Source of the DNA: a virus
IMG/VR virus record: IMGVR_UViG_3300036985_007703
Coordinates: 104,533-168,532 of that record
Length of the DNA: 64,000 bases
Reading direction: 5' to 3' (one strand)
Position numbers and translations under genes: made by a program. Below, piece after piece: positions 4,449-37,051 of the stretch. Position 1 is the first letter of the stretch; each line of letters starts with the position of its first letter. The notes beneath the pieces were generated by a model. It saw only the letters and a program-made list of their open reading frames with translations, had not been told where the DNA came from and did not search any database.

Positions 4449-4904
4449 TCAGCCCGGCAGCGTTTCCGTCCCGATGACGCCCGGCAGCGTCTGCGGCCAG
4501 CCCCTGAACGCGCACACCACCACGCGCCCCAGCGCGGTGCAGGCGAGCGAACTCTCCACCTTGAGCTTCCACCCCGGCGGCACGAGGACCCCGTTGCTGC
4601 CGAAGCGCAAGGAGCCCGTCCCCGCCGCGAGGCTCTCGACCTTGTAGACGTTGTTGGTGCCGTCCACGAGGCTCACCGTGATCGTCGGGGATCCCCCCGT
4701 GGGGAGGTTCCACGCCACGTACTCCACCCGCATGCCGACGCGCGCGTGGGCCGGGAAGAGCCCACCCTTGGTCCCCGCCGTGAAGACCTGGATGCGCCCG
4801 CGCTCGATCGTCTCCTCCGAGCTGACGCCATCCGTGGCCGTCCCATCGATGTGGCCCGAGGTCGCCACCTCATGGATTTTCATCACCGCAAATACATCCG
4901 TCAT
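4449..4904 (-). CDS. Hypothetical virion protein
   Basis: ORF between sheath and tube, GAGGAGG RBS. Confidence 0.6.
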   Translation of the reverse strand: MTDVFAVMKIHEVATSGHIDGTATDGVSSEETIERGRIQVFTAGTKGGLFPAHARVGMRVEYVAWNLPTGGSPTITVSLVDGTNNVYKVESLAAGTGSLRFGSNGVLVPPGWKLKVESSLACTALGRVVVCAFRGWPQTLPGVIGTETLPG

Positions 4905-4945: not shown

Positions 4946-7495
4946 TCACACCAGGGCCTTCTGCGAGAAACGGAACACTATGAACTCCGCGGGCTTGTTC
5001 GACGCGAGGCCCACGTCAACGAACATGAGGCCCTGGTCCACGGTGTTCTGCGGGTTGTTGGTCTTGTCGCAGATCACGAAGAAGGCCTCCTTGGGCGAGG
5101 TCCCCGCGAAGTACCCTTGCTGGAAGAGGCCGAGCAGGAACGTGTCGAGCTGGAGCTTCACGCGGCCCCACAACTGGGGCCCATTGTTCTCGAAGACATG
5201 CACGTGAGTCGCGTTGAACACGCTCTTCTCCACGAACTGGAACAAGCGCGTCATCTGGATGTAAGGCCAATCGCCGCCCGCGATGTCGAGGGTCTTGGCG
5301 CCCCAGATCACGCGGCCCGTCTGCGGCCAGCTCACGAGGCAGTTGAGCTTGTCCTGGTAGCAGATGCCCACCTGCAGCGGGGTGAGGTCGCGCTCCAGGC
5401 CGATCTGCCAGCTCAGCGCGCCGTCGCCCGTGCCGGCCGGCGCCTTGCCGACGTTCTTGTTGATGTCGGTCGTCGCGTAGCGTCCCGCCACGTGGCCGCC
5501 GCAGGGCAGGTTGATGGCCGCCTGGGTCACGGGGTCGATCACGCGCACGTGCGGGTAGTACACCGCGGCGTACTTCGTGAAGCGGCCCAGGGTGAACTTC
5601 TTCCAGTTCACGGCCTCTTGCGGTTCCAGGCCCTCCGGCGCGGTGAAGATCGCGAACTTGTCCTTGCGGAGCATGGCGTAGTCGATGACGTCCGTGCAGA
5701 CCAGCTCGTCGGTTTGGAAGTCGGCGACCACGACGCTCATCATCGCGTCCACTTGGTCGAGGGCGTAGAGGCCCTTGTAGTCCGCGACGAGCGTGGCGCC
5801 CGTCACGTCGCTGCGGTCGAGGGCCGAGCCGTCGGCGCCGTCGAAGAACTGCACGACCACGGCCGCGCCGGGCTGCGTGTAGTAGGTCGCGGTCTGCGGC
5901 TTCGTGATCGGGGCCTGGGCGGGGTAGGTGTCCGCCGTGGGGCCCGCGGCCGGGTTGCCCGCGATCTTCCACGTCAGCGTGCAGGCGCCCGTGGTGTAGT
6001 CCACGCGGTTCGTGCCGTTGCTGTTGAGGGCGTAGGCGCCGCAGGGGCGCTGCAGGCTGAGGTTGCCGTTGCCGTCGTCGATCACGACGGGCCCGTAGTA
6101 AAGCTGCGTGATGCGCACCGCCGCCACCCCGTCGAACGTGTCGGCGAGCCCGCTCACATCGAGGGCCAGGGCCCCTGTCAGGTAGTTCACGGTGCCCACG
6201 GTGGTGCCCGTGCAGTTGCCGGCCACGACCAGCTTGAGGTTGCCCGCGCCGTCGTCGCCCGCGATCTTGGCGCCGTCCCCGTCCAGGGTAAAGCTCACGA
6301 GCACGCCCGCGGCCACCGAGGTCTTCGCGGTCGAGGTGTTGGGGTGGAGCTGGGTCGGCGTCGCCGGGGTCCATGCCCACGTGGTGTCCGTGACGAGCGG
6401 GATCGTCGTGATGATCGGCAGCGGGCTGTGCTTGAAGCCGAACTGCATCGCCAGGGTGGTCTTCGCCACCGATGTGCCGATCTGGTACACGAACTCCTTG
6501 TTGGCGCCGTTGTAGGCCGGGGAGTTGCTGACGTCCCTGGACGCGTAGTGCGTGCCCGCCAGCTCGGGGGGCAGCTCGCGGTTGAAGGCCACGACCGCGG
6601 CGATGTCGGAACCCGCGTTGAGGTCGTTCAGCACCGTGGCGATGAACTGCGGGCTGCTCGCGTCATCGAGCACCACGCCCTGATAGGTCTCGAACGTGTT
6701 CCAGCCCTGGATTTTCTCGATGTACTCATCGATGGTCACGTCGAAGCGCGTGTAGCTCGCCGTGGCGGCCACGTAGTAGTCGGGGGTCCCGCTGACCACG
6801 GCGCGGTAGTTGTTGCCCGCGAGGCCCGGCCACTTCAGGTCGAAGCGGAAGGTCTCGTAGACCCAGCTTGCCGTGAGGAACTGGCCCGCCGGGAAGTCGG
6901 CCGGCGTGCCGAAGGTGAGGTGCACCTCGCCGGTCTCGTAGTCGATCGAGCCCGTGGTGTCCACGCCATCGTCGAACCCGCCCGTGCCCGTGACGGTGAA
7001 GGTCCCATCGCCGTTGTCGGTGAAGGTGCCGATCTTCGGCACGACCTCGCCATCCGTCGTCGTCAGCACCAAGGAGGCGGCCAGCGTGTAGGGGCTGGGG
7101 CCGTAGCTGCCGTGCGGGACCACCGGGGTCTTGGGCAGGCTGAAGCTGTAGCTCGCCGCGCTGTCGCCCTCCACCACGTCCATGCCCTGGACGTCTTTGG
7201 TGAGGAAGCAGCGCGCCTTCACGGCGTCGACCTCGTGGACCACGCGCACGAAGTACAAAGTGGTGCCGCCGTTCTGGAAGAACGCGTAGGCCTCGGTCGG
7301 GGCCAGCGAGGCCGCGGTGAAGTCGCCGAACTTGGCCGTGAACTCCTGGAAGGAGGTCACGATAGTCGGCTTGTTCGTCGGGCCTTTCTTGGAGAACCCG
7401 ATCAGGCCGAGGTTGCTGGTGCTCACGCCCTGGATGGGGCCCGGCCCGCTGCTGCGCTCCTCGATGTACACGCCCGGATAGTTACGCTCTGGCAT
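4946..7495 (-). CDS. Contractile tail sheath protein with large insertion
   Basis: YPGVYIEE, GPTNKPT.VTSFQEF..KFG, AAVYYP, KAPAG, IWGAKTL, VFENNGP.LW, KPAEFIVFRF. Confidence 0.95.
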   Translation of the reverse strand: MPERNYPGVYIEERSSGPGPIQGVSTSNLGLIGFSKKGPTNKPTIVTSFQEFTAKFGDFTAASLAPTEAYAFFQNGGTTLYFVRVVHEVDAVKARCFLTKDVQGMDVVEGDSAASYSFSLPKTPVVPHGSYGPSPYTLAASLVLTTTDGEVVPKIGTFTDNGDGTFTVTGTGGFDDGVDTTGSIDYETGEVHLTFGTPADFPAGQFLTASWVYETFRFDLKWPGLAGNNYRAVVSGTPDYYVAATASYTRFDVTIDEYIEKIQGWNTFETYQGVVLDDASSPQFIATVLNDLNAGSDIAAVVAFNRELPPELAGTHYASRDVSNSPAYNGANKEFVYQIGTSVAKTTLAMQFGFKHSPLPIITTIPLVTDTTWAWTPATPTQLHPNTSTAKTSVAAGVLVSFTLDGDGAKIAGDDGAGNLKLVVAGNCTGTTVGTVNYLTGALALDVSGLADTFDGVAAVRITQLYYGPVVIDDGNGNLSLQRPCGAYALNSNGTNRVDYTTGACTLTWKIAGNPAAGPTADTYPAQAPITKPQTATYYTQPGAAVVVQFFDGADGSALDRSDVTGATLVADYKGLYALDQVDAMMSVVVADFQTDELVCTDVIDYAMLRKDKFAIFTAPEGLEPQEAVNWKKFTLGRFTKYAAVYYPHVRVIDPVTQAAINLPCGGHVAGRYATTDINKNVGKAPAGTGDGALSWQIGLERDLTPLQVGICYQDKLNCLVSWPQTGRVIWGAKTLDIAGGDWPYIQMTRLFQFVEKSVFNATHVHVFENNGPQLWGRVKLQLDTFLLGLFQQGYFAGTSPKEAFFVICDKTNNPQNTVDQGLMFVDVGLASNKPAEFIVFRFSQKALV

Positions 7496-27905: not shown

Positions 27906-29762
27906 TTAATCCCTCCGCCCATGGCCCGCCGCCCGCCGATCCCGGCGCGCTTGCCGAGCCTGTGCCTCTAGCGTCCGATCGATCCCTTCGACCCGCGCCG
28001 CCATGCGCTCCGTGAGCCGCGTGACGCGCCCGTGCTCGCTCAGCAAGCGGTCCAGCCGCGCCTTCACCGCCGCGTCGCCCTCCAGGGCGCGCCCGCGGGG
28101 CTCCTCCGCCTCGGGGACCGCCCCCTCGGCCGCCCCCATCTCCGGTGGGAGCCCGCCCTCGGCGCCCATCGGCCCCATCACGGTCTCCGGGTACTCCCGG
28201 ATGATCTCCGCCTGCGTCGCCGCGTCGCCCTTCATGGCCCCGCGCTTGTCCTTGCGCGCCTCGTCCGTCACGTAGATGGCCTCGTCCTGCGAGAAGCCGA
28301 ACACGTGCTGGAGGATCCAGGGCTGCGGCACCAACTCGCCGAGGCCCTGCGCGAGCTGCGCCTGCTGCAGCCGCACCTCCAGCTGTGCCAGCTCGAAGAT
28401 GTAGCTCGGCACCGTCATGTGGAGATCGAAGGCCACCGCGTCGGGGTCGATCCCCAGCGCCGCGAGGTGGACCCGGCAGATCTGCTTCACACCGTTGCGC
28501 ACCTCGCGCTGCACCCGCATGGCCGCCCGCGCGAACCGCACGTCGTCCCCGCTCGCGATGCGCCCCGTGGTCTCCTCCATCCCGAGGAGGCGCTTGGGGG
28601 TCTGCGCCGCGGCGAGCACCTTGTTGCGGAAATACTCCAGAATGTCGAGGTCCTGCGAGTCCACGCCCTGCAGCACGTCGACGCGCGTCGAGTCCTTGCC
28701 CCCGCGCGTCGGCAGCCAGAGGTCCTCCAGCTGCCCCTGCACGTTGTAGCGGAAGTCCAGCTGCCCCGTGCTCGGGTTGAAGACCTTCTTGCGCGTGTAC
28801 TGCTGCTGGATCTTCTTGACGTGCGCCCAACCCTCGGTTGGGGGCATGTCCCCGGTATCAATATAGAATGCGTTGCGCGAGGGCCCGCGCGTCAGCTTGG
28901 TGACCAGCGCGGTGTCCTCCATCATCATGAGCCGCTTCCAGGCCCAGCGCCCGCCGTCCAGCACGCTCACGCCGTAGACCGCCGTGGTGTCCTTCTGCCG
29001 CAACCGCCAGTGGACGATCTCCCAGGGCTCGAACACCACGCACCCGTTGACGGGCTTGCGCTGGTCGCGCGCCACCTTCAACGCCGCGTCGAACTCGCGC
29101 TGCGTGAGCTTGAACTGCCCCGTGGGGTCCTGGATGAAGCCGAGGGTCGTCCCGTGGTTGTCCTGCACGCGCCGCATCGTGGGGGGCGCCAGGAAGTTGA
29201 TCCCGACGACGCCCATCTTGCCCACGAGGACCTCGCCGAAGCGGTTGCCGTACTTGCCCAGCGTGCGGGCGAGCCCGTGGACGTCGTCCTCCAGGCGCAG
29301 GCGCCGCGTGAGGAGGTCCTCCAGCACGTCGCGCACCAGCTTGTCCTTCGAGGAGGCCCAGATGCTGCGCCCCGTGTTGCTGTCCGGGATCGAGGCGTCG
29401 TCCGCGTAGAGCGTGAAGATCGACGAGGTGAGGTCGTAGTCGTCCATGTCCTCGGCGTCGCGGTACCGCTGCATGAGGTCGTCGGAGAGCTGGAGGGCCT
29501 GCGCGACGGGGCTGTTCGCGTCGAAGTTGCCGCCGGTCTGCAGGGCCAGGGCCCCCACGTAGCCGTCCTTGGCAAGGAGCGGGTTGTCCTGGTGCTTGCC
29601 CGCGATCTCGGCGCCCTGGGTCACGCCGCGGGGCGCCGTGGGGCCCTCGTGGGCCGGTCCGCTCCCGCGCCCCAGCCATCCCCGGATCTTGTCCCAGAGG
29701 CCCCCGCCCTTGTCCCCGGCTCCGGTCGGCTGCTGCTGTTGCTGCTGCTTGGGATCCGCCAT
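27906..29762 (-). CDS. Portal protein (T4 gp20 family)
   Basis: YR..EDMD, KYGN.F, IVHWRL, YG.SVL, L.MMED...R.P.R.AFYIDTG.MP, EDLWLPTRGG, YFR.K...A...PK. Confidence 0.93.
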   Translation of the reverse strand: MADPKQQQQQQPTGAGDKGGGLWDKIRGWLGRGSGPAHEGPTAPRGVTQGAEIAGKHQDNPLLAKDGYVGALALQTGGNFDANSPVAQALQLSDDLMQRYRDAEDMDDYDLTSSIFTLYADDASIPDSNTGRSIWASSKDKLVRDVLEDLLTRRLRLEDDVHGLARTLGKYGNRFGEVLVGKMGVVGINFLAPPTMRRVQDNHGTTLGFIQDPTGQFKLTQREFDAALKVARDQRKPVNGCVVFEPWEIVHWRLRQKDTTAVYGVSVLDGGRWAWKRLMMMEDTALVTKLTRGPSRNAFYIDTGDMPPTEGWAHVKKIQQQYTRKKVFNPSTGQLDFRYNVQGQLEDLWLPTRGGKDSTRVDVLQGVDSQDLDILEYFRNKVLAAAQTPKRLLGMEETTGRIASGDDVRFARAAMRVQREVRNGVKQICRVHLAALGIDPDAVAFDLHMTVPSYIFELAQLEVRLQQAQLAQGLGELVPQPWILQHVFGFSQDEAIYVTDEARKDKRGAMKGDAATQAEIIREYPETVMGPMGAEGGLPPEMGAAEGAVPEAEEPRGRALEGDAAVKARLDRLLSEHGRVTRLTERMAARVEGIDRTLEAQARQARRDRRAAGHGRRD

Positions 29763-29781
29763 GCCGTCACGCTCCTCGCGC

Positions 29782-32736
29782 CTAACCCATCAGGAAGGGC
29801 AACATGGGGACCTCGGCCTCGCCCTCGGGGCCCGGCTGCCCGGTCACCCACGCGAAATCCTCGGCCTCGGCGCGCCCCTCGCCTGGTTGTAGCACCCCGA
29901 GGGGCACCCTCGGAACTTTTTTCAGGAGCCCCGCCACGACGCCCGCCACGGCGTCCGCGCAGTCCTTGGAATTGTGCACAAACACGCCCGCAGACAACGC
30001 AAAATTGTTCCACACGTCGACCTCCAGGTCGTACACCGGCACAGGATCGGCCAACTGCACGGGGATGACAGCACGCACCTTGTGGTTCAAACCGTGGCGC
30101 GCCAGCAGGTCACTCCATGAGGAAAACCCATGTTCGCGCAGCACCCGCATCACGGTATTGCGACCACATCCGATAGCACGGGACGCGGCATTGGCATTGT
30201 CTACAGATGGATTACGGGCGGCCTCCAACACAACACCAAGATCCACGTCAGATCGGAACGCGCCACTCTTCCGAGCACGGGCACGTCGCTGCTCAGGCGT
30301 CATAGAAGCTATCATGCGGCTCATCGCCTCGGCATGGATGGCTCGCCCACGCGCACTCAAATTAAACGCCTGCAGACCATCGCGCACATGCTGCTCATAC
30401 ACAGCATCCTCTAGGTGCCGTTGGATCGTGTGCTCTCGCGAGTGGTCCTCTCGTCGAATGATCTCAATGTTGTCTGGCCTATTGTCGGTCTTTACCCCGT
30501 TGCGATGATGCACGATCTCATCCTCGCACACAGGACGCTGGAAGTGCTCAGCCACAAGATAGTGGGTGAGTGTCCTGTGACCGTGCGCATCGGTCAGGCG
30601 CTCATACCCACCATTGACAGGCCAAACCTGACTGATAGGCATCAGACGATCTACCCCAGGCACAAGATCGCTTGCTGGCTTGTAAGATCCATCCCGAAGC
30701 ATCCACGGATGCTCTGGCGTGCAACGGACGACGGCCCCGCTGTCAAGCACAACATCCAATAGGGCACTCGTCGTTTTCGTAAGGCGCCCCCGCGCCAGCC
30801 CCGGCACAATCGTCCCATCATTCCGCGCAGAATAAACCCACACCTCGCGCCCGCATAGCTCCGCTATCGTAGGCCGCGTGCCATCCATCAAAGGAATGCG
30901 CGTCTCCCCCACAAAACATCCCGCCATCGGGTGGTCAATTTTTCCTCGCATACGATCGTGCTCCAGGGCCCGCAGCTCCCCGAGCAGGGGCGCGTGGTCG
31001 TACAGCTCGATGCGCCGCTCGTAGATCGCCGAGCGCAGGGCCTCGTAGGGCACCATCGTGACGTCCACGCTGAGGATCTCCGAGGCCACGCCGCGCCGGC
31101 GCATCGCCTGCAGGGTGTCGGCGCTCTGGTACTGGTCGCACGAGAACCCGATCAGCGAGAACCCGTGCGCCTGGAGGTCGTAGACCACGGCCCGGATGTC
31201 GGCGAGCTGGATCTGCTCCCCCGGCGGGGGCCGCACCTGCAGCACGAGGTCGAGCACGAAGGCCGGGGCGAGGTCCGTGTAGTGATCGCCCTCAGGCGTC
31301 CGCCGCACGACCTCCACCCAGCGCTCGATGTGCCCCATGGCGATCCCCGTGCAGTCCCCCGACAGCGAGGTGTCGATGTGGACGTAGCGGAAGGCCTTGG
31401 GGTTGCGGAGGGGCGTCCAGGCCTCCTCCTCGAACCCGCCCGGCAGGCGCCGCACCGAGGACTTGGCCAGCTGGTGCCAGTGGATCACGAGGGGCTCCCC
31501 GTACTGCCAGGTCTGGCGGTGCGCGGGGTGGCGCCGCGCGGGGTCCACGGCCTCCTGGATCTTCTCCGTGCGCTGGATGAACACGCTGATGGCCGTCGTG
31601 GGGACGCCCGCGATGTCGCGGATCGCATCCTCCAGGTTGGACTCGAAGTCCACGCGGTACTCCTCGGGGACCGCGATCACGCGCGCCTCGTCGGGGAGGG
31701 TCGCGAGGTTCACCTCCTCGCCGGGGGGCAGGATGCGACTGCGCAGGGAGCTTCCCCCGCAGAGCACTTGGAAGGTGCGCCCGCTGAAGCTCCCCGGCGG
31801 CTTGACCTCCCACGTGGCCATCTCCATCGCGTAGATCGAGGGGTCGTGGTGGGCCGCCGCGAGGCGCCGGTCGATGAACGACCCCACCGTGTTTGCGCTC
31901 GACACCATCACGATCATGCCGGGGAGGTCCCCGCTCGCCTGCACGAAGCGCGACTTGATGCGGCGCTCCAGGGAGCGGTACGTGACCTCGGCGTGGTCGT
32001 AGTGCGCGAGGCTCTTCTGCTGGCCGTCCGCCGTGCGGATCTTCTGCTTGGTGGAGCGCACGAAGTTGGTCTCGTCGAGGGCCGCGGCGAAGGCGTTGGT
32101 GCCCATGGAGCGCTCGGCGAGGTAGCTCGCGACGATCATCTGCACGTTGTAGGGGAAGTACGTCGCCTCGGTGTGGACGTCGGGCTTGAAGTGCTCCTGG
32201 AAGTACGGGCTGATCGCGAGCTTGTTGTCGATGGCCGACTTGAGGACCTGGCGCGCAAGGACCAGGTTGCGGCTCACGAGCACGATGCTCATCTCGGAGC
32301 CCGGCGACATGCCGTAGGAGGCCTGCGGGTTCACGAGGCAGCTCAGCTCGTAGAGGAGGCGGCACATGGCGATCGAGAGGGCCGTTGTCTTCCCCCACCC
32401 CGTGCTGCCCCCCAGGATGACCTCGCGGTAGTGCGCGCCCGGCTCGAAGATCTCGATGAGCTTGCGCCGCAGGACCGGGTAGAGCGTCTGGCAGGATTCC
32501 CCCAGGTAGTAGGGATCATCGATAAAGGTCGCCATGTCGACAGGGGCCACGCGGTACCGCTTCGCGTAGCACTCGTTGGCGATCTCGGGGCGCCCCGCCT
32601 GCTCCTCGTACAGGAGGGCCTCGAAGAGGCGCCGCTCGTCGGGGGGCAGCGCGCCCAGGCGCCGCAGGAGGGCGGCCCGGCGCTCGGCCGGCGTGCGGAC
32701 GGTCCGCGTGCGCCCCTCGGGGGTGCGGATGATCAC
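29782..32736 (-). CDS. terL: Terminase large subunit, intein-containing
   Basis: Walker A GSTGWGKT, Walker B ALDE, nuclease HIDTS..GD.TG, DQYQS, DHP...SKDCADA. Confidence 0.93.
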   Translation of the reverse strand: MIIRTPEGRTRTVRTPAERRAALLRRLGALPPDERRLFEALLYEEQAGRPEIANECYAKRYRVAPVDMATFIDDPYYLGESCQTLYPVLRRKLIEIFEPGAHYREVILGGSTGWGKTTALSIAMCRLLYELSCLVNPQASYGMSPGSEMSIVLVSRNLVLARQVLKSAIDNKLAISPYFQEHFKPDVHTEATYFPYNVQMIVASYLAERSMGTNAFAAALDETNFVRSTKQKIRTADGQQKSLAHYDHAEVTYRSLERRIKSRFVQASGDLPGMIVMVSSANTVGSFIDRRLAAAHHDPSIYAMEMATWEVKPPGSFSGRTFQVLCGGSSLRSRILPPGEEVNLATLPDEARVIAVPEEYRVDFESNLEDAIRDIAGVPTTAISVFIQRTEKIQEAVDPARRHPAHRQTWQYGEPLVIHWHQLAKSSVRRLPGGFEEEAWTPLRNPKAFRYVHIDTSLSGDCTGIAMGHIERWVEVVRRTPEGDHYTDLAPAFVLDLVLQVRPPPGEQIQLADIRAVVYDLQAHGFSLIGFSCDQYQSADTLQAMRRRGVASEILSVDVTMVPYEALRSAIYERRIELYDHAPLLGELRALEHDRMRGKIDHPMAGCFVGETRIPLMDGTRPTIAELCGREVWVYSARNDGTIVPGLARGRLTKTTSALLDVVLDSGAVVRCTPEHPWMLRDGSYKPASDLVPGVDRLMPISQVWPVNGGYERLTDAHGHRTLTHYLVAEHFQRPVCEDEIVHHRNGVKTDNRPDNIEIIRREDHSREHTIQRHLEDAVYEQHVRDGLQAFNLSARGRAIHAEAMSRMIASMTPEQRRARARKSGAFRSDVDLGVVLEAARNPSVDNANAASRAIGCGRNTVMRVLREHGFSSWSDLLARHGLNHKVRAVIPVQLADPVPVYDLEVDVWNNFALSAGVFVHNSKDCADAVAGVVAGLLKKVPRVPLGVLQPGEGRAEAEDFAWVTGQPGPEGEAEVPMLPFLMG
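29971..30918 (-). mobile_element. Intein (316 aa) with internal HNH endonuclease
   Basis: Starts CFVGETRI, CTPEHPW block B, VYDLEV...NF...GVFVHN end, +1 Ser; VHHRNG.K.DNR..N; lower GC. Confidence 0.93.
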
Positions 32737-33503
32737 GGGGCGGGGGCCTCAGCCTGCCCCTCAGCCCCCGTGATGTCGATGGTCTCGCTCCCGTAGAGGT
32801 CCCCGTCGTCGTCCGTGGCCAGGGTCTTGAACTCCTCCAACAGGGCGAGCACGCGCCCCCGCGCCGCGGGCCGCTGCAGCACGGCCGCCACCTCGTCCCC
32901 GAAGCGCTGCTGCACGTTGACCACGACGCTCTGGTTCATGACCACGCTGGCGCCCTTGCTGCCGTGGTTGAAGCCGTAGGCCTCCTTGACCATGTGCATG
33001 CGGCAGATGGTGTCGACCACCTGCTGGGCCGCCTGCCCCACGGCCGGGATGGGGACGCCCACCTGCTGCTCGTAGGCGAGGCCCATGTCCACCCGGCTCT
33101 TCAAGATGCGGTACATCTCCTCCAGCCGGCTGAACTCCAGCTCCTCGTCCTCCATGCGCTTGCGCAGCCACCCCGCCATGCGGAGCTGCGCGGCCCCCAC
33201 GAACATCGCGCTCGGCATGTAGTTGGTGCGATAGGACAGGAGCTGGTTCTCCAGGACCCCGCGCGTGATCTCCGTGCGCTCCTGCGCCTCATTCTGGATA
33301 AAGGCCGCCGTCGCCGCACAGGAGTAGCCCTCCGACAGCATGTCCCGCACCTGGGGCCAGCACGTCAGGGACTCCAGCTTGCGCGCCACCGCCGTCTTCG
33401 TCTTCCACCCGCTCTGGGGGGGCAACGTCGGCTTGTTGCGCTTCGAGATTGTAGGTTTGGGCTTCTGAGCCCCCTTCTTACCAACCACTCCGCCTGTCCG
33501 CAT
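32733..33503 (-). CDS. Putative terminase small subunit
   Basis: Immediately upstream of terL, helical. Confidence 0.55.
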   Translation of the reverse strand: MRTGGVVGKKGAQKPKPTISKRNKPTLPPQSGWKTKTAVARKLESLTCWPQVRDMLSEGYSCAATAAFIQNEAQERTEITRGVLENQLLSYRTNYMPSAMFVGAAQLRMAGWLRKRMEDEELEFSRLEEMYRILKSRVDMGLAYEQQVGVPIPAVGQAAQQVVDTICRMHMVKEAYGFNHGSKGASVVMNQSVVVNVQQRFGDEVAAVLQRPAARGRVLALLEEFKTLATDDDGDLYGSETIDITGAEGQAEAPAP

Positions 33504-33578: not shown

Positions 33579-34133
33579 CTACTCGCCACGCCCCCCCGCG
33601 ATCCCGAGCTTCTCCCGGATCGCCGCGAGGTCCGAGCGCAGCCCGCTGAGCTGCTCCCGCAGCCCATCCAACTGCGGCTGGATGCGGTCGCCCGCCAGCC
33701 GCAGGGCCGTCACGTGCTCCTGCATCACCCGCGCATCCGAGGCCATCGCGCTCACGCGATCCGACACGAGGCGCACCTGGTCTTCCAGGGCGTCTTGCCG
33801 CGCCACCGTCGCCTGCAAGTTGAAATACAGGGTCCCTGCCATGAAGACCAAGGGCACGATCCAGATAATGATCCGCACCCAGGTGTCCCGCGTGAGCCCC
33901 CCCGGCGTCGCGGGCGGGGGGGGCGGCGGGGGGGCATAGCCCTGCACCGGCCCATAGTACGCGGGCCCCTCGGGCAGCGTGAACTGCCCCGTCACGTCCT
34001 CGTAGGCCCCCACCTGGCCGGGCCGCCCCGCGGGGTGATCGGGCCCACCCGAGTTGGCAGGGCCCGGCCCGTAGCCGCCCGGACTTGGGGGCGGGGCCAT
34101 GTGCGGGGGACGGGGGTTGCGGCGGTCCATCAT
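33579..34133 (-). CDS. Single-TM coiled-coil membrane protein
   Basis: Pro-rich N-terminus, TM WVRIIIWIVPLVFMAGTLY, coiled coil. Confidence 0.6.
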   Translation of the reverse strand: MMDRRNPRPPHMAPPPSPGGYGPGPANSGGPDHPAGRPGQVGAYEDVTGQFTLPEGPAYYGPVQGYAPPPPPPPATPGGLTRDTWVRIIIWIVPLVFMAGTLYFNLQATVARQDALEDQVRLVSDRVSAMASDARVMQEHVTALRLAGDRIQPQLDGLREQLSGLRSDLAAIREKLGIAGGRGE

Positions 34134-34201
34134 GCCGCCAGCGTACCGAACGCCCTGCACATCTGCAAGGATCGCGTCGATCGCGCCGCGCGGACGCGGG
34201 C

Positions 34202-34290
34202 AAAAAAAAGGGGCCGGCGACAAGCTAGGACCAGGGGGGGTGGTCGCGTCGCTCAAGTCGCCGGCCCCACAAGCCATAATGGGAGCCAAC
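34202..34290 (-). ncRNA. Putative small RNA or attenuator: long hairpin, C7 loop, U8 tail
   Basis: GGGGCCGGCGAC/GTCGCCGGCCCC stem followed by T8, promoter directly upstream. Confidence 0.55.
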
Positions 34291-34296
34291 GCCATC

Positions 34297-34326
34297 ACCG
34301 TAGCGGGCCACCCCCGCTGCTGTCAA
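34297..34326 (-). promoter_or_regulatory. Sigma70-type promoter TTGACA-N18-TACGGT
   Basis: Intergenic, perfect -35. Confidence 0.6.
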
Positions 34327-34336
34327 GGGAGAAGCG

Positions 34337-35365
34337 TTAGGGCTTCGCGTTGCCGATGTCGGCCAGGGTGGTCTCGCCGAAGAGAATCTCCGGGGCGCCC
34401 CCCGCGAAGGCCACGATGCGGACCTGCGTGAGGTCCTGCAGGGCCTTGAGGTGCCCCGCCAGATCCAGCGTGGGATCGGGCAGCGCCGCGGCCGGGGCCT
34501 CCGGGGCCTCCGCGCCGGCCTGCTCCGCCGCCTCCAGCAGGGCCCCGCCGTAGAGCACCTTGCCATCCTTGGGGTCGACCGCCACGATGCGCCAGCCCGT
34601 CGCGTGCTCCACCTGCGCGAGGTACTCCGCGGGCTCGTTGCGGTTCATGTTCGTCGCCAGGAACTCCGTGCAGATCATCGCCAGGGCGTGCGGCTCGCTC
34701 TCCGAGGCCGCCATGTCGCACGCCTTCTTGATCGCCCGCTCCACCGTGTCGACTTGCGACCGCATGAGGTTCCGGCTCCACTTGACGGGCTTCTGCTGGA
34801 TCTGGAGCTTCTCCTCGTCCTCGTCCGCCGCCGCGCCAGTCGGGAGGCCGTTGAGGCGCTCTTGCTCCGCGTCGACCTCACCCCGCACGAGCTTCTGCAC
34901 GTCGCGCGTGCTCAGGCCCTCCACGCGGCCCAGCCAGTGCTCCGCGTTCTCCGCCGTGACCACCGGCGCGAGGTCGCGCGCCTTCGAGGCCCCCAGGCGG
35001 TCGATGCGCTCCTGCAAGGGCGCCGGGAGGCTGCGCCGCCACGCCCAGATCTGCACGAGGTACTGGGCCTTGCGCAGCTCGAAGTCGACCTCCGATTCCA
35101 CGTACTCCTTCCACGAGGCGAACCCCCACGTCTGGTACAGCACCTTGTCGTACACGTGCCAGAGGGCCTCGCTCAGCTTCCAATAGTTGCTCTCGACGTT
35201 CGCCCGCAGGCGCTTCACGTCCTTGCGCACCTTCTCGGGCGCCCACTCGGCGAGGCGATCCTCGATCCCCACCTCCGCCGCGGGTTCCCCCACGCACGCC
35301 AGCTCCGTGTGCAGCCGCTCCGTCAAGACCTCCGGCACCGCCAACTCATCCTGCTTCTTCGCCAT
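34337..35365 (-). CDS. Putative DNA-binding protein (DUF3102-like N-terminal helical/HTH region)
   Basis: LYQTWGFASWKEYVESE.....RKAQYL motif; palindrome upstream. Confidence 0.55.
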   Translation of the reverse strand: MAKKQDELAVPEVLTERLHTELACVGEPAAEVGIEDRLAEWAPEKVRKDVKRLRANVESNYWKLSEALWHVYDKVLYQTWGFASWKEYVESEVDFELRKAQYLVQIWAWRRSLPAPLQERIDRLGASKARDLAPVVTAENAEHWLGRVEGLSTRDVQKLVRGEVDAEQERLNGLPTGAAADEDEEKLQIQQKPVKWSRNLMRSQVDTVERAIKKACDMAASESEPHALAMICTEFLATNMNRNEPAEYLAQVEHATGWRIVAVDPKDGKVLYGGALLEAAEQAGAEAPEAPAAALPDPTLDLAGHLKALQDLTQVRIVAFAGGAPEILFGETTLADIGNAKP

Positions 35366-35420
35366 CGTTCTGCTCGCTTTCCCTGCGCACGCGCGTGCGC
35401 AGCCCGCCGTCTGCGTTCTG

Positions 35421-35969
35421 CTAGAACAGCTTCTCTTGCTTCCACTCAAACGATCCTACGTCGACCGCCCCGCCCGTCAACCTGTGAAGGTGGAGGGCCG
35501 CCACCGCCCAGGCGTCCGCCTGATTGTGGTCCGCCACGGGCACCCCCAGCTTTATCACGTGGGGCAGGATCTTGTCCTTCTTGAGGTTCCCCTTGCCGAA
35601 GATCTCCTTGCGGATCTGGCTCACGATGTAGAGCGCGGGCTCCACCCGGCACGCCAGCCACAGTTGCGTCTTCACGACCCCATGCAGCTCCCCGAGGTCG
35701 TTCTGCGCCCCACGCGCCCCCCAGGCGAACTGCTCGATGGCCACCCCGCAGGGGGCCGGTGCCGCCCGGTAGGCCCGCACCACCGCCGTCGCGATGTCGA
35801 GCATGCGCTCCACACGCTCCCGCGTCGTGGCCGTGCGCTTCAGCGCGTACCCCACGGTCTCCGCCGCCCAGACAGAGCCCGTGGCCCCGTCAAGCGTTAC
35901 AAGTCCGGCCCCCCGATCCGAGAGATCGAGGCCGAGCACGCTCCCGAGATCTATTTTATGCTCCTCCAC
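35421..35969 (-). CDS. ruvC: RuvC-like Holliday junction resolvase
   Basis: VLGLDLS, VAIE, LGELHGVVK, GKGN..K, DHNQADA.AVA. Confidence 0.85.
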   Translation of the reverse strand: MEEHKIDLGSVLGLDLSDRGAGLVTLDGATGSVWAAETVGYALKRTATTRERVERMLDIATAVVRAYRAAPAPCGVAIEQFAWGARGAQNDLGELHGVVKTQLWLACRVEPALYIVSQIRKEIFGKGNLKKDKILPHVIKLGVPVADHNQADAWAVAALHLHRLTGGAVDVGSFEWKQEKLF

Positions 35970-37037: not shown

Positions 37038-37051
37038 GGCCTCCCCCCCGC

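Follow-up and report, generated by a model that had tools for sequence, protein, structure and literature searches.

A phage genome carries, at the boundary between its replication/recombination module and its packaging/structural module, a real and conserved structured RNA/terminator unit with its own predicted promoter; the unit is specific to one clade, falls outside the described RNA families, and would function either as a small RNA (sRNA) or as a gate to the late operon. The best explanation, for which the chances are judged to be about even, is a self-terminated sRNA whose lower stem would also insulate the late operon and whose C-rich loop would be the effector, by analogy with the bacterial sRNAs 6C and sX13. 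To our knowledge, hardly any regulatory RNAs have been described from uncultured large phages of high GC content, and this element sits exactly at the switch from DNA metabolism to particle assembly. It is also a clean candidate for study, being single-copy, promoter-bearing and strongly covarying, with an RNA short enough to be synthesized, and its invariant C-run loop is of the kind that serves as effector motif in the best-studied sRNAs of GC-rich bacteria.

Structure of the element

The window, a stretch of 64,000 nucleotides, is part of a 168.5-kb IMG/VR virus record of 70% G+C that is estimated to be 83% complete. By GC3 analysis the plausible genes of the window are all on the minus strand, and the element is therefore read on that strand. 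A first-pass annotation of the sequence had described a TTGACA-N18-TACGGT promoter, a 12-bp outer stem, an inner GACCA-C7-TGGTC hairpin, and a U8 tract; all are present on the minus strand (Table 1), and RNAfold recovered the nested hairpin together with an additional 4-bp stem, GAGC/GCUU. Transcription from the promoter, P1, is predicted to start near 34291-34289 (-), and the predicted RNA is ~89 nt in the window phage and ~63 nt in two leaderless lineages (L007 and L032). Ten of the pairs in the outer stem are G-C. The 73-nt core has a folding energy of -39.6 kcal/mol (z = -6.6), which none of 200 shuffled sequences equaled (RNAfold).

Table 1. Positions of the element, the second promoter-like site, and neighboring genes in the window.
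Feature	Position	Strand	Remarks
P1 -35 hexamer, TTGACA	34321-34326	-	10 nt past stop codon of upstream gene
P1 spacer, 18 nt	34303-34320	-	
P1 -10 hexamer, TACGGT	34297-34302	-	
Leader, 28 nt	34269-34296	-	variable; carries CUCCC motif
Hairpin, 59 nt	34210-34268	-	RNAfold
Outer stem, 12 bp, perfect, GGGGCCGGCGAC / GTCGCCGGCCCC	34268-34257 / 34221-34210	-	
UU bulge		-	between outer and middle stems
Middle stem, 4 bp, GAGC/GCUU	34254-34251 / 34225-34222	-	RNAfold
Internal loop GAC/UA, then G-C pair and bulged C		-	below apical stem; RNAfold
Apical stem, GACCA/UGGUC (DNA TGGTC)	34245-34241 / 34233-34229	-	
Apical loop, 7 nt, CCCCCCC	34234-34240	-	YCCCCCC in relatives
U8 (T8) tract	34202-34209	-	predicted intrinsic-terminator tail
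P2 promoter-like site	34140-34168	-	TTGCAG 34168-34163, N17, TACGCT 34145-34140
Upstream gene, 342 aa, phrog_17202	34337-35365	-	no assigned function; last of DNA-metabolism block; TAA 34339-34337; homologues in relatives 62-91% identical
First gene past unit, 184 aa	33579-34133	-	Pro-rich N-terminus, one TM helix, coiled-coil tail
Packaging genes, whole block	27906-33503	-	
256-aa protein in small-terminase position	32733-33503	-	without family hit
Large terminase (TerL)	29782-32736	-	with HNH intein
Portal	27906-29789	-	

Conservation among related phages

Relatives were collected by protein-anchored searches of viral and metagenome contigs and by homologue look-ups of both flanking proteins; annotated phage records gave no DNA match. 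Six lineages carry promoter, hairpin, and U-run: the window phage with L002 (99% amino-acid identity in the upstream protein), L025 (91%), L026/L027 (84%), L003/L011/L012 (83%), L007 (68%), and L032-L036 (62%). The TTGACA hexamer is invariant in all six, as it is in every one of the eight lineages examined, and lies 8-11 nt past the preceding stop codon or overlaps it. The P1 spacer is 17-18 nt long in relatives and its sequence is unconserved, the -10 hexamer varies among TACGGT, TAACGT, TAGGGT, and TATGGT, and the U-tract ranges from T5 to T8 with its arrangement next to the stem kept. The leader measures 28, 31, 21, and 32 nt in the close lineages and only 4 nt in L007 and L032, so that it appears dispensable. 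Since the hairpin of these two lineages starts 4 nt past the -10 hexamer and the RNA would be the hairpin alone, the conserved function is expected to lie in the hairpin. An attenuator with an antiterminator in the leader was rejected as a general mechanism on the same two leaderless lineages.

The same architecture was obtained from independent folds of every element-carrying lineage. A covariance model built from five close sequences, with L007 and the L032 group left out of the building, recovered these divergent lineages at 43.5 and 38.3 bits, respectively; in both the 168.5-kb genome and a 161-kb relative it detected exactly one copy. When eight sequences were aligned by fitting to the covariance model, a procedure that favors structure, 99.4% of 174 pair cells were standard pairs and 13 of 22 pairs had compensatory changes on both sides, a result matched by none of 500 shuffles (slid controls gave 0-2). 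A MAFFT-only alignment of the five close sequences is 100% paired with 5 compensatory pairs and, like the independent folds, agrees with the model-fitted count. G-U or U-G pairs occur at six positions where the opposite strand would have A-C mismatches; because these pairs fit only the sense strand, the fold is selected in sense-strand RNA.

The apical stem covaries at all six pairs (GACCA/UGGUC, AACCA/UGGUU, GAGAA/UUCUC, AGCGGU/ACUGCU), the C6 core of the loop is invariant in the aligned relatives, and the UUGAG...AGCU frame is nearly so. An invariant C6 loop over a covarying apical stem exceeds what a terminator alone would need. A coding function was also considered, as in the window one open frame crosses the hairpin and continues into the downstream gene, yet this frame is not conserved in relatives, and it was rejected because L002, L003, and L025 have in-frame stops within or near the hairpin and the length of the T-run varies. 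The element thus combines covariation with the lack of any conserved reading frame, as is characteristic of structured non-coding RNA.

Promoters and terminators in the genome

Runs of at least six T are rare, with only eight in the whole 168.5-kb genome, and among them only two are canonical hairpin and T-run terminators on the coding strand, the element and a site at genome position 7284. Of all T-runs on the coding strand, the U8 of the element is the longest in the genome; the first-pass annotation had described it as the clearest intrinsic terminator-like tail noticed in the window. With a GC-rich stem directly abutting a U-tract on the transcribed strand, it is a predicted intrinsic terminator; a generic terminator scan missed it because only loops of 3-8 nt were allowed. 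The pattern TTGACN-N16-19-TAnnnT has seven matches in the genome, all on the coding strand and none on the other, where ~1 would be expected on both strands together. The other strict matches sit upstream of genes, and only P1 is followed by a terminator instead of an ORF. P1 is also the sole strict match that is conserved across the 7-kb loci of the relatives. Its hexamers, 18 nt apart in the window and within the 16-19 nt of this promoter class, are conserved in position, making it a predicted promoter of the sigma70/SigA type. A separate promoter for the upstream gene was sought in a match at 35480 and rejected, since that match is inside the RuvC coding sequence and is not conserved in relatives. 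T4-type late promoter words were looked for as well, and no recurrent AT-rich motif was seen among 123 AT-rich clusters. The unit of P1, hairpin, and U8 is not a chance occurrence.

Three of the strict promoters, at genome positions 30365, 21476, and 4590 (-) and outside the window, have a common extended form, GTTGACAAACC...TTACGTT or CTAACTT. Those at 30365 and 21476 are followed by ACAAACC and a GGCGCCTGGCGCC palindrome ahead of the ribosome-binding site, and the one at 4590 by a different GC hairpin. This looks like a co-regulated class of promoters with an operator.

P2, the second promoter-like site, starts 33 nt past the U-tract, and an ATG at 34133 follows its -10 hexamer after 6 nt. 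The pattern TTGCrr-N17/18-TAnnnT with an ATG 5-8 nt further on is kept in all lineages, including L007, L032, and L037, and the intergenic sequence flanking it diverges freely among lineages. The -35 hexamer is weak, with three of six matches to TTGACA. The spacing from the -10 hexamer to the ATG suggests a leaderless mRNA, and the conservation of P2 downstream of the terminator makes it a putative start of their own for the late genes. If P2 is not a promoter, then the late genes must be read through the terminator, which would favor a gate to the late operon. Outside the window, genome position 52671 (-) has the same geometry (TTGCGG-N17-TAGGCT, 6 nt, ATG), a hint that leaderless-type promoters form a small class of their own in this phage.

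Gene neighborhood

The placement at an early/late boundary, proposed from the single sequence, agrees with the gene content. The DNA-metabolism genes on the upstream side include those for an SbcC-like protein, a Cas4-like exonuclease, and a RuvC-like resolvase, and the packaging genes downstream are followed, past the portal, by head protease, major head protein, and tail sheath. The large terminase has 984 aa, with the HNH intein at approximately residues 615-922 (Pfam Intein_splicing, HNH_3).

In the L032 lineage, a gene for a 518-aa DNA methylase is inserted between the phrog_17202 homologue and the gene for the Pro-rich protein. Only 6-11 nt separate the phrog_17202 stop codon from the methylase start, and the P1-hairpin-U8 unit lies past the methylase, with TTGACA overlapping its TGA stop codon. 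The position of the unit past the inserted gene indicates that it travels with the head of the packaging operon and not with the upstream gene. Insertions of the cytosine DNA methylase were seen at L032:524-1564, in L033-L035, and at L031:3020-3713, and are split into fragments in some assemblies.

The next-closest lineage, L037, keeps the TTGACA past the upstream stop codon and keeps P2; the C-loop hairpin is absent and is replaced by GC hairpins without a U-run. The RNA is therefore not indispensable to this genome layout. Ahead of an inserted P22_AR_N/ANT antirepressor-like gene, at L037:1813-1910, lies a module in which TTGACG-N18-TAGGTA is joined by a CU-rich leader and by a simple hairpin of 9 bp with a T-run. 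The leader of this module is similar to the CU-rich stretch that follows TTGACA upstream of the Pro-rich gene of L037, and the two may be paralogous. More distant homologues of the upstream gene (37-39% identity) are followed by TTGACG or TTGACC words, a hairpin, and a T-run at L017:1797-1870 and also in L018, L019, and L020, where they come directly ahead of a small Cys-rich ORF, next to its ribosome-binding site, and of a ParB-like gene.

Comparison with known RNAs

A search of the whole window against Rfam at gathering thresholds returned no families, so the element has no family match there, and a scan found no tRNA or tmRNA. None of 6C, sX13, or pRNA matches the element, and 6C was absent from a 251-nt search even at E<=10. 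The best Rfam match in a permissive search over the 251 nt was suhB/mmgR (alpha-r8, RF00519), at 23.3 bits and E = 0.007. The likeness consists of the CUCCC motif of the leader and a GC-rich terminator with U8, and the score comes mostly from the terminator; the CUCCC-bearing leader is missing in two of the lineages here. Membership in suhB/mmgR was rejected because the match is weak (the gathering threshold is 41 bits) and was not reproduced in relatives, with no match in L003 or L007.

In the 6C sRNA of Actinobacteria, pairing of the C-rich loops with G-rich sites in mRNAs needs no chaperone (Mai et al. 2019, PMC6486639), and the sX13 sRNA of Xanthomonas has C-rich apical loops that repress mRNAs with G-rich motifs at the ribosome-binding site, independently of Hfq (Schmidtke et al. 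2013, PMC3771888). Like 6C, the element would be a small structured RNA of a GC-rich genome with its own promoter and terminator, both predicted here, and an apical loop of at least six C. However, it has one conserved C-loop where 6C has two or more, it does not match the covariance model, it is nested wholly in its own terminator hairpin, and it is encoded by a phage. With sX13 it shares the C-rich apical loop and a GC-rich organism, but sX13 consists of three stem-loops with 4C/5C motifs, is chromosomal and next to polA, and has no similarity to the element in sequence or model. The comparison with 6C and sX13 is one of mechanism by analogy and not of membership.

The element can also be set beside sRNAs from the 3' ends of genes. 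The position of P1 at or after the end of an upstream ORF, and a single terminator that would serve both the sRNA and the upstream mRNA, are as in DapZ and MicL. These enterobacterial 3'-end sRNAs have their own promoters and share the terminator of the upstream mRNA; sRNAs of this type are Hfq-dependent and have a single-stranded seed upstream of the terminator. In the element, by contrast, conserved unpaired bases are confined to the terminator hairpin, and the unit follows the downstream operon instead of the upstream gene.

Proposed function and alternatives

According to the preferred explanation, the self-terminated sRNA, a sigma70-like promoter of host type (P1) would start a transcript made up almost entirely of one long hairpin and ending at the U-tract. 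The GC-rich lower stem with U8 would be a strong intrinsic terminator for transcription from P1 and from the upstream DNA-metabolism operon alike, thereby insulating the packaging/structural operon, which would itself be served by P2. The upper hairpin, comprising the UU bulge, GAGC/GCUU, GAC/UA, the 5-bp stem, and the YC6 loop, would be the conserved effector part. The C-run loop would most likely pair with single-stranded, G-rich stretches of mRNAs from phage or host; alternatively, it may be held by a protein. The firing of P1, termination at U8, and contacts made by the loop are inferred from the sequence. The first-pass annotation had called the element a self-contained small RNA, and for this putative RNA that is the reading best supported by comparison, given the conserved P1, the covarying hairpin, the invariant C-loop, and the separate P2; a late leader of the lambda type remains its main rival.

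The same annotation had proposed that the RNA acts as an anti-Shine-Dalgarno sequence, which stands as an analogy only. Ribosome-binding sites in the phage and its relatives are mostly of the GGAG type, and the G-run sites of this phage, that of the exonuclease gene at 37049 for example, are not conserved among relatives. The sense strand has 178 runs of at least six G, a number that makes target prediction by G-runs meaningless, and a G-run search of the phage sense strand together with a comparison of ribosome-binding sites in relatives found no conserved target of the C-loop. A copy or mimic in hosts was also looked for and rejected: when 185,579 species genomes were scanned for the pattern, 14 matches appeared, which are considered chance since none has the outer stem or U-run and the best covariance-model score among them is 13 bits. 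Kink-turns and CRISPR repeats (as RNA anti-CRISPR) were rejected by sequence, the required G-A pairs being absent for the former and a repeat-like length for the latter.

A more speculative form of regulation, held to be somewhat unlikely, is that the regulatory RNA consists of nothing but an elaborated terminator hairpin made by the host polymerase from the start of infection. Its C6-7 loop and internal loops would titrate either a host factor or ribosome-binding sites rich in G, or would dock a phage antiterminator. In a large GC-rich myovirus, one 60-nt element would in this way act as both barrier and timer for entry into the packaging/structural operon.

The main rival, by our estimate unlikely, is a late-operon gate of the lambda pR'-tR' type, which the first-pass annotation had also raised. 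P1 would then be the true late promoter, with transcripts stopping at the proximal terminator until a phage factor makes the polymerase terminator-resistant; the short RNA would be functionless, like lambda 6S RNA, and the apical hairpin may be the RNA site of the factor, as N reads boxB. The geometry fits, since a strong promoter of constitutive type and a close intrinsic terminator head all packaging and structural genes on one strand and would give a short terminated RNA, as in lambda, and the unit stays with the late operon despite the methylase insertion upstream. The module in the packaging region of L037 is a second case of promoter, leader, and terminator before another gene, and the sequence-conserved apical hairpin could be a protein-binding site. 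Against the gate, a profile search for the Q families PF06530 and PF03589 found no match at E<=0.1 in the 168.5-kb record (estimated 83% complete), and no phage sigma factor of the sigma70 family (PF04542) was detected in the same genome; a novel antiterminator unrelated to these families may still be encoded. The initially transcribed region, which is where a Q-type pause would be located, is unconserved and has weak -10-like words in some leaders only, and it is nearly absent (4 nt) in L007 and L032. A conserved P2 between the terminator and the first late gene, which has no counterpart in the lambda arrangement, would be redundant. The terminator is 60-90 nt from the start here and 194 nt in lambda, and the hairpin here carries a conserved apical domain; a factor site nested in the terminator stem would not obviously block formation of that stem.

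It is improbable that the hairpin and U8 are a plain terminator at the end of the DNA-metabolism operon, with the P1 match and the conserved loop having no function of their own. Such a terminator would suit the position after the last stop codon of a co-directional gene block, one would be expected at a module boundary in a phage with few canonical terminators, and the distant phages L017-L020 also have a hairpin and T-run past the homologous gene. However, six lineages keep TTGACA and TAnnGT at a spacing of 17-18 nt while the spacer sequence drifts, and the L032 lineage retains the -35 hexamer even where it overlaps the stop codon of an inserted gene; the match at 35480, chance-like and unconserved, shows how P1 differs from a fortuitous promoter word. 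Nor would termination require the C6 loop to be invariant, or the internal loops above a freely covarying stem to be conserved. Were the element only an insulating terminator with a vestigial promoter, it would be of modest interest.

A signal at the level of DNA, replication, or packaging (a pac/terminase site, a protein-bound cruciform, a promoter-primed origin, or a phi29-like pRNA) is very improbable: the terminase genes begin ~700 nt downstream of the element, its linkage to the packaging operon would suit such a signal, and T4-type origins (oriF/oriG) consist of a promoter and a downstream element, but the strand-specific G-U pairs argue for folding of sense-strand RNA and not for a duplex site or cruciform, no AT-rich unwinding element exists beyond T8, the contig ends give no sign of a terminus at the element, and the packaging-associated RNA suggested in the first-pass annotation lost its footing in that no Rfam pRNA model matches and a single, simple 59-nt hairpin is without the multi-helix architecture of the ~120-170-nt pRNA.

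Additional sequence features

A 20-bp palindrome, CTGCGCACGCGCGTGCGCAG, is present at window positions 35383-35402 (-) in the 5' region of the phrog_17202 gene. It recurs at genome positions 7270-7250 (-), right after the other canonical terminator of the genome, and respelled versions, TGCGTACGCGCGTACGCA and GCGCATGCGCATGCGC, are found in relatives at the same junctions. Outside the window, at approximately genome positions 6740-6800 (-), a tRNA-like T-arm (GGTTCGATTCC) occurs together with an AT-rich word resembling an anticodon loop.
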